From Octopus sinensis (lineage: Eukaryota), in NCBI RefSeq assembly GCF_006345805.1, contig NC_043008.1, positions 71,734,001-71,798,000 on the forward strand: DNA of 64,000 nt. The letters are read 5' to 3'. A model generated the notes under the pieces. The model searched no databases and was not told where the DNA came from. It was given only the letters and a program-made list of their open reading frames with translations. Position 1 is the first letter of the stretch, and each line of letters begins with the position of its first letter. Shown one piece after another: positions 2,027-46,122 of the stretch. Position numbers and translations under genes: made by a program.

Positions 2027-3901
2027 AGGGAGAGTTTACGAAAAAAACAAAAGAGGAAGACAGGTGGTGTACTAAACAAACAGATGTATCAGTATAACGC
2101 TGAGGAATAGAAAACGTATTTTACGTTTCGAGCACACGCTCTTCTACAGAGAGGGACACAGAAAAAACAAAAACAAGGAGAGAAAAATGTGTGTAGTGGC
2201 TAACGATCAATCATGGTGACTGACTCGGACAGATGGGTCACATACGAGTGGGGAAAGTAGGGGAGATAACAAAGATGACTCCCAACACGAAGGTGCATGT
2301 GTACATAAGAGAGTATGTATGTGTGTGAAAGAGGGCTGGTGGTCTGAACGTGTGCGTGTATGTATGTGTAGGTGTGAAAATGTGGGGATCGGTGAGTGGG
2401 TGGTGTGTTGTGATGTGATGTGTAATGTTTTATGTTGTAGTGTGGTCTGGTGTGATGTTGTTGGGAGGTGGGGGAGGCGAGAGTGGGGAAATCACGGGTG
2501 GGGTGTGGGTTCGGCTGAAGGTTGGGGTAGAGTTGGGGTTTGTGGTTAGGCAGAGGGTGGGAGTAAAGTTGGGGTATGTGGGAGAGGATATGTGGGATAG
2601 GATGGGATGGGGGATGGGAGGATAGGGAAGGTGGAGTAGGAATGCGTAGGGGTGGGTGGGCTTATGGGGGAGGGGAAGGTGGGTATGTGAGGAGAGAGAG
2701 GAGGAGAGAAGTGAAAAAGAGCGTAAGAGAGAAGAGAGAAAGCGAGGGTGAAGGAGTAAGAGAGAAAGAGAGTAAGGGATAAGAAGGAAAGAGGGGAGAG
2801 AAAGAGAGAAAGAGAGTAGGAGAGAAGGGAGAAAAAGAGAAAGAGAGAAAGAGAGTAAGAAAGAAGAGAGAAAGAGAGTAGGGGTTAAGAGAAGTAGTAG
2901 TGAAGTGAAATAGGAGTGAAAAGACGTAGGAGTCGGGGCAAGAGAGGAGAGTTGGGTGGGAGGAAGTAGAAGGGAGGGAGAGAGAGAGGAGTGAAGAAGA
3001 GTGAGGGAGCAGCGAGAAAGGGAGAAGAGAAAAAGAGAGTAGGGGTGAAGAGATGTAGGAGTTAAGAGAAGTAGGAGTCGAGGAGGTGTTTAAATGAAGA
3101 GGCGAGGAGAGTTGAGCCCAAATGGCGCAAAAGAGCGAAGTGAGAAGATTAATCCCTGTTCACGGCGCATACGGATGGCCTCTGTGCAAGGACAATCCGA
3201 ACACAGACAGGTGTTGCAAGGAGTGACCGGTAGAGCGGAAATGGCGTGAGATCGGGGTGTCATTGCCGAGGCGGATGTCTCGGAGGTGTTCCGCGAACCG
3301 GTCAGCCAAGCGGCGTCCCGTTTGTCCGATGAACAGGGAATGGCAGAGAGAGCAGGAGATGCAGTAGATGATATTGTTGGAGGTGCAGGTGAAGGAGTCG
3401 GTGATGCGATAGGGTCGATGATTGGTGCCGGTGAGGAGGGTGGTGTTGGACAGGTAAGGGCAAGTGCGGCAACGTGGGCGGGAGCTGGGGAACGAGCCAG
3501 GCTGGGAGGTAGGTTTAGTGAAGAAACTGTGGACCAATAGGTCTCGTAGGTTGTGGGCTCGTTTGAAGGAGGGGAAGAGTCGGTTAGGGAAGATGTGTGA
3601 AGTGGACGGGTCGGACTGGAGTTGCCGGAAAGCTCGGAGAATGGTGCGTTAGAGAGGCAGGGTGGTGGGGTGGTAGGTGAGGGGAAAGGGAGGTGGGAGA
3701 CTGCAGGGCGGGTTCGGGGGGAAAGAGCAGATGCACGGTCCACGGAAGTGCTCTAGTAAGGGCGGTGTGGATAGTGGTCAGGGGATAACCACGTAGGATG
3801 AAGTGGCGAGTCATGAGTTGAGACTGAGTCTCAAAGTCATGGTTGTCACTACAGAGCCTGGGTAGACGGAGGAATTGGGAATAGGGGATGGAAAGCTTGA
3901 T
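2027..3901 (-). mobile_element. 5'-truncated Penelope-like retroelement (RT C-terminus, Cys-rich linker, GIY-YIG endonuclease, 3' UTR/pLTR)
   Basis: Frameshifted ORFs: IKLSIPYSQFLRL..CS..RGYP, RPRCRTCPY, CTSNNIIYCISCSLC..FIGQTGRRLADRFAEHLRDI, PISRHF, and APFGLN at the C-terminus; terminal region 2027-2215 has an HHR-like motif and abuts (TA/TG)n. Confidence 0.9.
2119..2150 (-). ncRNA. Degenerate minimal hammerhead ribozyme in Penelope terminus
   Basis: Minus strand CTGTAGA-A-GAGC gtgt GCTC-GAAA-CG-TA; A6->U core change, poor stem I. Confidence 0.45.
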
Positions 3902-4509
3902 ACACCTGTACAGACACACATACGTACACACCCAGACATGATGCTATAGAGGTGCCATCACATACATTCGGGTAAATGTGGCAAGTAACTTCTACTCTGT
4001 TATGGAGCCATGAAATAACCCCAGTAGGGGCCTACAGTCAGCTAGAAAGAACGGCAAATTTTCTGATTAAACACACCTTAAATCCTGGAAAGGAAAGGAC
4101 CAATTTTGAGTGTGCAATTCTGTCTACACTGTGTCTGAACTGCCTCTCATTCTCCGAGTGATGCCTATCGCGAAGTGAACAAAAACGAAACTGGCACATA
4201 ATATATCATGGCGATATCTATAGATTGTCCCATAGATTGATTCCCTTCGTAATTGATGGTCTGTCTTGCTGATGGTTGTTTTTGATGCATTCTGTCTCTT
4301 CAATCTAGCTCAAGCTGCTTTTACATCTTCTCCAAGTAGTCAAGCTATTCTACAATAAGCTTACAGCAATGGTTTTCTCCGTATTTGTTTTTGTCTTTGT
4401 TACTTTTATACATCATATATTTACAATCATCGTGTGTATATAAAATTTCTATATTGCATTTACTTTGACTATTTGTACTTAACGTTGTGTACTTAATCTA
4501 ATAGTGTGT

Positions 4510-5200
4510 CGATGTATACAAAAAAACAACCGGACAATTTCAAATAAGCGAATGTCAAATGTCATTCTTAATCTCAGAATGGCAACACTTCACCAGGACA
4601 GTAGCTGGATATTACATGGTCGTTCGTCAAGTCGATTATTGAACTAGAGAAATATTATTTGTTTTCATTTTTACATCGCTTTATAAAGAAGTGTTAACAT
4701 TATGTCCGAACATAGGTGCTTTGTCGAACGATTTCCCCAATATTTACCTAACTAGAAGGCTTACAGGTCGAGTCTAGCGAAACAAATAATGCCATGAACA
4801 TGTGTTCGCTCAATACTTCAAAGAAAATACCTAATATTGTTTCTAGTTGATATCCCTAAGTGTTTTAGGGATAGCACTGACCTGACTCCCTTATCGTACT
4901 TTATACTGAAAACATTTCGAAATGCTTCCCACTTATAAAGCTTATAAATGGATTGATTGATGGTGATTTCAAGGGCTCTGTGAAAAGGGGTTGAGATAAA
5001 CTTCGTCCACTTGACAACTGCCAAGACATCTGTGAAGAAATGAGAAGGGTGACGAATGACTTGGTTAAAAACTAATCTGTAAAAGTTAATGCAAGTATAT
5101 TATCGAGTTGGCTGATCAATAAACACTTTTTATTTACCGATTCACCTTTCTTTCATTTATCAACGAAAATGGCGGATACTTTGACAGTCCAAGTCAGAAA
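4510..5200 (-). mobile_element. Degraded mariner-like transposase remnant
   Basis: Minus-strand LYKWEAFRNVFSIKYDKG resembles the mariner HTH region (VYxW..F..G..S..D..RSGRP); heavily decayed. Confidence 0.35.
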
Positions 5201-43400: not shown

Positions 43401-43815
43401 TCGCTATTGAATGTGGATGCTGTGGATGGTAGTATTTCAACTGTTTGATTTAATTGTAAAATCAGGATCAAAAATGTATAAAACACATAAATCACTAATA
43501 TTCAAAGGCCCGAAGGCGACTTACAGAAGAATCGACGGTCATCAAGGAAACCGCCTTTAAGACACTGGAGAATTGTGAAATGTGGTTCTGGAGGCGAGTG
43601 GAGAAAAACTGCTGCACGAACCATGTGAGCAATGAAGAAGTGCTTAGGTGGGTTGGAGAAAGCGGTGTTTATATATACATATACATACGTGTATATACAT
43701 ATATACATACGAATATACACACACACGCACACACACACACTCACACACACACATAGTCCTATTTTTATCGACTGTCATATTAGTTTGGCGATAGCTATTT
43801 ATATATATAAATATA

Positions 43816-43856
<41 letters not shown>

Positions 43857-44119
43857 CAATTAAGGACAACTACTTAATAAGGAAAACTTAACAAGAAATT
43901 GTCAGGTAGATAGCGTGAAAACCTCATAAGAGAAAGAATTTCGAAAATAATTATTTCTTATTGAACATATTAATTTATATATAGAGGGCATTATACATCC
44001 ATGCCAGATGGCATTATACATACATGCCACACGCTAAGAGGGACAATTAGTCATTTCTACCAAAAATATTACTAATCCCACCGAATGCAATTTTTCAAAG
44101 TAAGACATTTAAAAAATAT

Positions 44120-44167
44120 AGACCTGTATCACAGTGATTTCATACTTACGTATTCATCAGCAGGCCT
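44120..44167 (-). ncRNA. Type I hammerhead ribozyme (copy 1)
   Basis: AGGCCTG-CTGATGA-ATAC gtaa GTAT-GAAA-TCA ctg TGA-TA^CAGGTCT on minus strand. Confidence 0.88.
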
Positions 44168-44595
44168 GGATGTATCATACATAAACGACCTTGCCTCGCT
44201 TAAGCCGATCAGCTAACTGATCAACATCAACGAAGCACATGGGTGAGTTTACATATATTACATCCTGTAAATGTCAGACTTTTACGAATTGCATTTCGGG
44301 AAAGGAAAAGTTTTTTCGGAATAAAAATTTAGCAATTAAGGACAACTACTTAATAAGGAAAACTTAACAAGAAATTGTCAGGTAGATAGCGTGAAAACCT
44401 CATAAGAGAAAAAATTTCGAAAATAATTATTTCTTATTGAACATATTAATTTATATATAGAGGGCATTATACATCCATGCCAGATGGCATTATACATACA
44501 TGCCACACGCTAAGAGGGACAATTAGTCATTTCTACCAAAAATATTACTAATCCCACCGAATGCAATTTTTCAAAGTAAGACATTTAAAAAATAT

Positions 44596-44643
44596 AGACC
44601 TGTATCACAGTGATTTCATACTTACGTATTCATCAGCAGGCCT
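44596..44643 (-). ncRNA. Type I hammerhead ribozyme (copy 2)
   Basis: Identical to copy 1. Confidence 0.88.
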
Positions 44644-44974
44644 GGATGTATCATACATTTGGCATGGATGTATAATGCCCTCTATATATAAATTAATATG
44701 TTCAATAAGAAATAATTATTTTCGAAATGTTTTCTCTTATGAGGTTTTCACGCTATCTACCTGACAATTTCTTGTTAAGTTTTCCTTATTAAGTAGTTGT
44801 CCTTAATTGCTAAATTTTTATTCCGAAAAAACTTTTCCTTTCCCGAAATGCAATTCGTAAAAGTCTGACATTTACAGGATGTAATATATGTAAACTCACC
44901 CATGTGCTTCGTTGATGTTGATCAGTTAGCTGATTGGCTTAAGCGAGGCAAGGTCGTTTATGTATGATACATCC

Positions 44975-45022
44975 AGGCCTGCTGATGAATACGTAAGTAT
45001 GAAATCACTGTGATACAGGTCT
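44975..45022 (+). ncRNA. Type I hammerhead ribozyme (copy 3)
   Basis: Stem I aggcctg/caggtct (7 bp, one G-U), core CUGAUGA, stem II auac/guau with GUAA loop, GAAA, near-palindromic stem III, AUA triplet; cleavage predicted after 45015. Confidence 0.9.
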
Positions 45023-45449
45023 ATATTTTTTAAATGTCTTACTTTGAAAAATTGCATTCGGTGGGATTAGTAATATTTTTGGTAGAAATGACTAATTTCC
45101 CTCTTAGCGTGTGGCATGTATGTATAATGCCATCTGGCATGGATGTATAATGCCCTCTATATATAAATTAATATGTTCAATAAGAAATAATTATTTTCGA
45201 AATTTTTTCTCTTATGAGGTTTTCACGCTATCTACCTGACAATTTCTTGTTAAGTTTTCCTTATTAAGTAGTTGTCCTTAATTGCTATATTTTTATTTCG
45301 AAAAAACTTTTCCTTTCCCGAAATGCAATTCGTAAAAGTCTGACATTTACAGGATGTAATATATGTAAACTCACCCATGTGCTTCGTTGATGTTGATCAG
45401 TTAGCTGATCGGCTTAAGCGAGGCAAGGTCGTTTATGTATGATACATCC

Positions 45450-45497
45450 AGGCCTGCTGATGAATACGTAAGTATGAAATCACTGTGATACAGGTCT
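45450..45497 (+). ncRNA. Type I hammerhead ribozyme (copy 4)
   Basis: Identical to copy 3; cleavage predicted after 45490. Confidence 0.9.
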
Positions 45498-45633
45498 ATA
45501 TTTTTTAAATGTCTTACTTTGAAAAATTGCATTCGGTGGGATTAGTAATATTTTTGGTAGAAATGACTAATTGTCCCTCTTAGCGTGTGGCATGTATGTA
45601 TAATGCCATCTGGCATGGATGTATAATGCCCTC

Positions 45634-45676
<43 letters not shown>

Positions 45677-46122
45677 TTTTGGGGATTCGGTTTGCAAGAT
45701 TCTTTATGTGAGTTTGTGTGTTGAAGCATATTTTGTGGTGTCAGGGTAGAGTCATTCTTTTTTATGCCGTATTATTTAACACGCTTCCCGGTTCAGTTTC
45801 CAGTCATCTACTTCGATATTTTTATAAATTTTTCGTTGCGTCTTGCAACCTTTTCAATATACGTTGACTCTGTCCGTTTTCTGAGCTGCGTTCTTTTGTT
45901 TGCTTGTGCGCATCTGTGTGGCTCAGTGTTCGTGCCCATACACATATGTATGTATGTAGGTATGCTTGTATGTTTGATTATGCATGTATGTTTGTGTATG
46001 CACACACACACGCACACATTCACACATACGCATATACTTACACGCACACACATTCAAACGCGCTCACATATATATAAATACATCAGATGTTTAGGCTAAA
46101 TTCGAAACTACTCTCTGTTAGT

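Follow-up and report, generated by a model that had tools for sequence, protein, structure and literature searches.

What kind of element carries four copies of a hammerhead ribozyme motif in a piece of octopus DNA that has no meaningful coding capacity and is bounded on both sides by (TA)n, and how did it come to be inserted there? The element lies in a 64-kb stretch of DNA that was analysed as a whole, here called the window. It is best read as one insertion of a non-coding 476-bp hammerhead family whose mobility likely depends on a Penelope-like RT/GIY-YIG enzyme of the Neptune type that acts in trans and targets (TA)n, and the probability of this reading is about 75%. The class of the element, a non-LTR retrozyme with Penelope-like mobilisation, can be assigned with considerable confidence.

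The locus is composed of two inverted arms that diverge from 44656-44660 (Table 1). The 3' ends of both arms run into (TA)n, both arms are truncated at their 5' ends, and about 3 nt (CAT) at the inversion junction are compatible with either arm. A search of the 64-kb window for the 34-nt hammerhead core gives exactly four matches, two on the plus strand (44982-45015 and 45457-45490) and two on the minus strand (44636-44603 and 44160-44127). A descriptor based on pairing finds the same four motifs in the window and nothing else. The four 48-nt type I motifs are identical, two on each strand, and consist of a 7-bp stem I, a 4-bp stem II with a GUAA loop, the near-palindromic stem III AUCAC-U-GUGAU, and the cleavage triplet AUA. 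An earlier note on this DNA had described four type I hammerheads with a complete core and these same stems, and both descriptions agree with the core search and the descriptor. The monomers that it had proposed were recovered as the cut-to-cut spans of 475 nt (45016-45490) and 476 nt (44602->44127). The near-identity that it saw between units amounts to one indel and two substitutions between these two. It was also right that (TA)n lies at both ends of the element and that the units hold no meaningful ORF, the longest ATG ORF wholly within the element being 67 aa and spanning the inversion junction. Its 476-bp tandem unit stands as a unit length, but the single tandem array that it described is in fact two divergent inverted arms. 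This two-armed design was missed by that note, as were the fixed ends, the haplotype structure and the candidate partner described below. A SINE in the flanks of the element is presumably octopus-type.

Table 1. Features of the retrozyme insertion in the window, and loci elsewhere at which a LINE is linked to the retrozyme unit
Feature	Position	Strand	Basis
Left (TA)n target microsatellite	43796..43855	.	
Minus arm, 804 nt, 5'-truncated at unit phase ~421	43855..44658	-	
Minus arm 3' end = site B, phase 273, ...CCTTAATTGCTA, into (TA)n	43855..44658	-	
Hammerhead motif, predicted cleavage between 44127 and 44126	44120..44167	-	descriptor
476-nt cleavage-to-cleavage monomer, predicted fold -143 kcal/mol, z -8.2	44127..44602	-	
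Hammerhead motif, predicted cleavage between 44603 and 44602	44596..44643	-	descriptor
Head-to-head inversion junction of two truncated 5' ends	44656..44660	.	
Plus arm, 989 nt, 5'-truncated at phase ~116-120	44656..45644	+	
Plus arm 3' end = site A, phase 154, ...GCCCTCTATATATAAAT, into (TA)n	44656..45644	+	
Hammerhead motif, predicted cleavage after 45015 (AUA)	44975..45022	+	descriptor, fold
475-nt cleavage-to-cleavage monomer	45016..45490	+	
Internal 23-bp duplication of the window subfamily	45112..45158	+	
Hammerhead motif, predicted cleavage after 45490	45450..45497	+	descriptor
Right (TA)n target microsatellite	45634..45674	.	
Retrozyme-linked LINE	L031:2261-7542		
Retrozyme-linked LINE	G000 C1:154829262		
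Retrozyme-linked LINE	G000 C3:18012295		
Retrozyme-linked LINE	G000 C4:47498445		
Retrozyme-linked LINE	G000 C6:14967592		
Retrozyme-linked LINE	G000 C6:103451394		
Retrozyme-linked LINE	G000 C11:72907923		
Retrozyme-linked LINE	G000 C13:5880552		

A comparison with the Rfam hammerhead model, which had been proposed as a check, returned no match at the gathering score in the whole window and none at E<=10 in 43800-45700. The identification of the motif therefore rests on the descriptor and on covariation. The descriptor and the fold both recover the type I core CUGANGA / GAAA / UH, with helices I-III in type I order. Covariation was counted over 17 variants that are related to one another, so that the counts are not independent. 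Changes on both sides of a pair are found at five of the six stem I pairs, in keeping with the type I identity claimed at the outset, and at three of the four stem II pairs. Among these variants 95% of cells pair, compared with 22-44% when the partners are slid. The core and stem III were fixed by the search pattern and are uninformative in this comparison. The first pair of stem II is A-U where G-C is usual, and 7 of the 17 variants leave it unpaired.

The motif is abundant in the genome. The exact 32-nt core occurs 513 times and a looser core pattern matches 4,311 times genome-wide, while the reversed control gives 0 in both cases; 513 exact cores against none cannot be due to chance. The subfamilies are 63-92% identical to the window unit. 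The family is dispersed, and it is young and non-coding, as had been suspected from this one locus.

The predicted folds favour the motif in pairs. The canonical monomer hammerhead folds at -10.5 kcal/mol, and the minimum-energy fold of the monomer, at -12.9 kcal/mol, mispairs the core. The best fold of two copies is a double hammerhead at -32.7 kcal/mol, against -10.5 per canonical monomer, as would be expected if, as had been suggested, the palindromic stem III favours dimers. The full monomer is predicted to fold far better than its shuffles (z -8.2, with -6.4 and -4.0 in other subfamilies), and in this fold stem I pairs the 5' end near the 3' end. The fold of the whole unit is conserved: in a consensus over seven units, 23 of the 87 pairs have a two-sided change. 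According to the accessible text of 10.64898/2026.07.22.740005, one of nine predicted Xenopus retrozymes cleaved in vitro, so that cleavage of the octopus motif cannot be assumed.

The ends of the insertions follow a strict rule. They were mapped in all 59 locus clusters that the first 100 listed places of the exact core form (contigs 1, 2 and part of 3). This set is unbiased, and 39 of the 59 are two-armed. One of these 39 has lost an end to a LINE, and all 38 resolved two-armed loci pair site A (phase ~150) with site B (phase ~273), three ends that the text rule left undecided having been classed by phase and by eye. Neither A+A nor B+B pairing occurs among these 38. If ends were chosen independently, A+B in 38 of 38 would have a probability of 0.5^38 = 4e-12 or less. 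The 20 single-armed loci end at A (13), at B (6) or elsewhere (1), and the outer ends are followed by at least three TA repeats in 95 of 98 cases. In the 77%-identical subfamily F2, 16 of 18 resolved two-armed loci are A+B; the other two pair a minor site (phase 111) with B, and none is A+A or B+B. The F2 set comprises 23 loci that are mostly best matches and is not unbiased. Older F3 copies, read by eye, end at homologous sites. The tail is ~120 nt long.

The inner ends behave differently and are scattered over all phases. Of 98 inner ends, only one falls no more than 5 nt from the cleavage site, compared with 2.1 expected under a uniform distribution. Arms cross cleavage-site junctions uninterrupted 129 times, and indels are not enriched there. 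Because the inner ends are not piled up at the cleavage site (phase 1), a cleaved linear monomer was rejected as a run-off template. Classical single-template twin priming, in which the B arm would start near site A, was rejected as well, given that the inner ends spread over all phases. Support for microhomology at the head-to-head joins is weak: six of 11 insertion-free joins overlap by at least 2 nt, against 19% expected (p 0.009), with exact extension resolving 14 of the 39 junctions.

The units within a locus are more alike than units of different loci. Substitutions within a locus amount to 0.7% in F1 and 0.1% in F2, compared with 2.4% and 0.7% between loci. The 46 F1 loci counted are those with at least four unit pieces; they hold 34 distinct haplotypes, with 122 locus-fixed variants (109 of them in both arms), 162 private variants and 23 that are partly shared. 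Fifteen of the fixed variants are confined to one locus. In F2, 255 units hold 36 fixed variants, 54 private ones and one that is partly shared. Since a locus-specific haplotype is found in both arms, each insertion appears to have descended from one unit, and the haplotypes lean towards a template that was a single monomer, probably circular. Gene conversion or assembly polishing could also have homogenised the units. A parent unit with a private variant that is fixed in a daughter locus was matched only by five single-site coincidences, which are unconvincing.

The template could instead have been an uncut linear multimeric transcript. The hammerhead would then only trim RNA or be gated by protein, and the homogeneity within a locus would come from homogeneous young source arrays together with gene conversion. 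This is an unlikely account, although one locus speaks directly for it. At L150, one arm passes from a unit that carries a LINE to one that lacks it, an order that requires a template of at least two different units and not a monomer circle. Uncut RNA is also the main substrate of the Poseidon_Ac PLE in vitro, where hammerhead cleavage is dispensable, as far as the available text of PMC11167929 goes. The lack of any accumulation of cDNA ends at the cleavage site suits an uncut template and fits a circle equally well. The 34 haplotypes in 46 F1 loci, however, with 15 fixed variants confined to single loci and most fixed variants in both arms, require a bottleneck of a single unit. Hardly any private variant is common to units of the same index in opposite arms, and such units are about as distant as other units (in F1, 0.72% compared with 0.84% and 0.68%). 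Arms of up to ~15 units with star-like variation likewise argue against a linear multimer and for the single monomer.

The element is not an autonomous PLE, as it holds no RT + GIY-YIG ORF, and a partner was looked for in the same genome. Two Neptune-type families have intact RT + GIY-YIG ORFs, one of 784 aa (L333, with its ORF at 2643-4994, and L335) and one of 835 aa (L194); their Neptune label rests on the cysteine linker, following the accessible text of Craig 2021 (10.1101/2021.04.23.441226), and the GIY-YIG domain scores just below the Pfam cut-off. Copies of the 784-aa family end in (TA)n at either of two positions, which lie ~35 nt from each other. Across 26 of its loci, seven of the eight two-armed loci with both ends readable pair a short end with a long end, and the eighth is ambiguous. 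This family is proposed, tentatively, as the partner of the retrozyme. The 835-aa family is GC-rich, targets (TA)n, and carries a minimal hammerhead variant of its own. The 30 loci read at +-1.5 kb show one end only and no divergent arm, and this family is the weaker candidate. A 5'-truncated, frameshifted copy of it lies in the window at 3093-3898 (-).

Penelope-like mobilisation, as put forward in the earlier note, is thus supported by the anatomy of the insertions; a shared sequence is not found, as the unit does not convincingly resemble the 3' ends of either Neptune family. PLE 3' fragments at L141 and L150 have marginal or no likeness to the unit. One chimeric two-armed insertion is present at L042:944-4869 (G000 C1:64838943-64842868). 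Its arm 1 is Neptune of the 784-aa family with the long end, and in its arm 2 a 132-nt stretch of Neptune 3' UTR directly adjoins three retrozyme units that end at A. This single fusion may be a later insertion with deletion. It is the one direct Neptune-retrozyme junction among 233 loci with unit sequence, some of them overlapping, that were screened against the two Neptune families. The unit is therefore not always attached to a Penelope ORF, the finding that would have made it a mere pLTR tandem in the terms of the earlier note.

Several other hammerhead-like motifs were observed in passing. The 784-aa Neptune family has one at L333:5720-5790 and in L335, read by eye, in which U3-A8 replaces C3-G8 and stem III is palindromic. 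The minimal motif of the 835-aa family (L194:3370-3420) has U for A6 in most copies read. More non-coding hammerhead-like elements, with other palindromic stems and (TA)n ends, are found at L141 (~4500-4600, minus strand), L179 and L336. The genome seems to hold several unrelated hammerhead-like families.

The unit might also be the detached pseudo-LTR (pLTR) of an autonomous PLE that was not found, with the copies being its 5'-truncations and tandems. Vertebrate retrozymes derive from pLTRs, according to the available text of 10.64898/2026.07.22.740005, and only two Neptune families, each with more than 12,000 candidate matches, were examined in depth. Wherever an arm is truncated, however, it continues into more unit and never into an ORF, both in the unbiased set of 59 and in the other sets of loci that were mapped. 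The predicted fold closes over exactly one unit, and the single direct Neptune junction in the screened loci weighs in the same direction, leaving a detached pLTR improbable. A satellite spread by DNA events (extrachromosomal circles, unequal crossover or fold-back repair in TA tracts) with a vestigial ribozyme is very improbable: long tandem arrays do exist, some F1 ones (L032, L033) with nested shared variants as local expansion would yield, and a DNA circle would also produce single-haplotype arrays, but the 3' ends are fixed in ribozyme orientation while the 5' ends are random, A and B are strictly paired, the autonomous 784-aa Neptune obeys the same end rule, and stem I and the whole unit covary at the RNA level.

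The retrozyme unit is itself a target. At eight loci other than the window, the 3' end of an antisense 5.28-kb LINE falls at phase 120 of the unit; in the window this phase corresponds to 45135 and lies within the 23-bp duplication. The LINE encodes a zinc knuckle, an RT and a zf-RVT domain by Pfam, and the ESM Atlas returns 'RT' only; from the domain layout we take it to be L1/Tx1-like. The 5.3-kb insert at L031, considered as the body of an autonomous parent, is this LINE in antisense and was rejected. The junction reading took in 22 of 25 loci, including all eight that are retrozyme-linked. The 5' junctions vary and two copies have 13-14 bp duplications, so most of the LINE copies at phase 120 are independent insertions. 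Four target classes occur across copies that are only a few percent apart. In a tree of 24 of the 30 copies, with six short ones omitted, target type follows lineage: it needs 5 changes, where shuffling gives a mean of 13.5 and none of 200 shuffles reaches so low a number. The retrozyme-linked copies do not form one clade (p-AU 0.0003). That target type tracks lineage across near-identical copies suggests that the target is inherited through read-through RNA rather than altered by a change of endonuclease. The eight retrozyme-linked ends are among 70 exact LINE 3' ends genome-wide, and this 11% is below the 20% rule for LINE target specificity given in the accessible part of PMC4494074.

Two further observations concern this LINE. 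The same LINE-retrozyme junction is present in both arms at L150:533-7201; the 5.3-kb LINE was therefore likely a passenger, and both cDNAs would have come from one chimeric RNA species. Elsewhere, 23 of the 70 exact LINE 3' ends lie in ~1.1 Mb of one contig (G000:C28:4367210-5497292), and the four LINE copies read in this cluster sit in one repeated target.

Parts of the unit are covered by contigs of four sequencing runs whose RNA nature is only guessed, and some of these contigs span the cleavage site. Among the datasets that match the unit, none is on record as RNA. One contig, at a depth of ~9, has eight clustered A-to-G changes over window positions 44755-44805, at which ~200 genomic units have G in 0-2.5%. 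The cluster looks like A-to-I editing of paired arms, in a run guessed to be RNA that carries another species label.

On the preferred reading, that of a non-coding family mobilised in trans, insertion would proceed as follows. A multimeric transcript would fold into double hammerheads and be cut to ~476-nt monomers. Stem I would keep the ends of the monomer close, so that they could be ligated into a circle. Both strands of (TA)n would be cut by the enzyme, which is probably a dimer. Two cDNAs would be primed on a shared template, one starting at A and the other at B. Each would circle the template for 0.05 to ~15 turns, and the two truncated 5' ends would then be joined head to head. For the Poseidon_Ac PLE, the accessible text of PMC11167929 reports two internal RT start sites in vitro, cutting of both strands and a predicted dimer.

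These steps can be combined with the LINE in a joint reading, in which a dimeric Neptune primes two cDNAs at one (TA)n break, rolling round the monomer circle, and the LINE homes to the unit. It is a conjecture with slightly less than even chances. On it, the two RNA sites would be obligately different, the circle would be made by the ribozyme, and a LINE lineage would home to one nucleotide of the unit and hand its choice of target on to its daughters, likely through read-through RNA. If the joint reading is true, the tails, inverted arms and tandems of PLEs would be explained in one step, and the family would be a genome-wide record of Penelope-like transposition on a small RNA circle.

The PLE cycle is still undefined according to the available text of Craig 2021 (10.1101/2021.04.23.441226), and that of 10.64898/2026.07.22.740005 states that the retrozyme mechanism remains to be elucidated. 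At issue are the way in which PLEs acquire their tails, inverted arms and tandems and the question of whether RNA circles truly serve as the template. Strict end pairing, single-haplotype arrays and a candidate enzyme make the mechanism testable. The family offers a 476-nt substrate whose start sites are mapped and thousands of copies of the motif, and its genome also encodes an intact candidate enzyme, so that these questions can be put to the test in vitro. It is a clean genomic test case for Penelope-like transposition.

Among known systems, double hammerheads of satellite transcripts (PMC4209133, as far as its accessible text goes) likewise have a palindromic helix III, which is weak in the monomer and extended in the tandem dimer. 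The octopus motif differs in its first stem II pair, which is A-U, and in its longer stem III palindrome of 11 nt with a single central mismatch. A plant LTR retrozyme, with a type III hammerhead in its LTRs and a 4-bp target duplication, was rejected because the octopus element has type I topology and no LTRs.

The Neptune/Naiad PLEs described in the available text of 10.1101/2021.04.23.441226 share with the octopus family partial tandems, an inverted 5'-truncated copy, a (TA)n bias and a tail at one end. The octopus insertions thus have the Penelope-like anatomy of a partial tandem, an inverted 5'-truncated arm, a one-end tail and a microsatellite bias. Two internal start sites (PMC11167929) and a hammerhead that lies upstream of the ends are further features in common with such PLEs. 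Unlike the Neptune/Naiad PLEs, the retrozyme has no ORF, and its tail is ~120 nt long compared with their 30-40. Stem III of its hammerhead is palindromic and complete at 4-5 bp, whereas the PLE form is minimal, and the whole retrozyme unit is repeated head to tail up to ~15 times per arm.

The closest likeness is to the non-LTR retrozymes of PMC7229834 and 10.64898/2026.07.22.740005. In the accessible text of both, these are non-coding, low-GC tandem repeats, each unit measuring a few hundred bp and holding one type I hammerhead; they are dispersed as monomers to multimers and are proposed to spread through RNA circles with Penelope-like machinery. The octopus family has at least two consecutive non-coding units with one type I hammerhead each, and it is a dispersed multicopy family that is not tied to an ORF. 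Its unit of 453-495 nt is longer than the 170-400 nt RNAs of PMC7229834 and lies within the 51-972 bp of 10.64898/2026.07.22.740005. Its two-armed loci, 39 of 59 in the unbiased set, with paired fixed ends in (TA)n, are unlike those of PMC7229834, the available text of which does not contain the words 'inverted', 'microsatellite', 'octopus' or 'cephalopod'. Expression and circles have been demonstrated for the retrozymes of PMC7229834, whereas the octopus family is known here from genome sequence. No cephalopod retrozyme was found in the openly accessible literature, although Repbase, Dfam or supplementary files may list the family, and the available main text of a 2026 Octopus repeat annotation (PMC13282606) does not contain 'ribozyme' or 'retrozyme'. 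The octopus family is a real, young hammerhead retrozyme with a predicted ribozyme, and it is added to the known metazoan non-LTR retrozymes.
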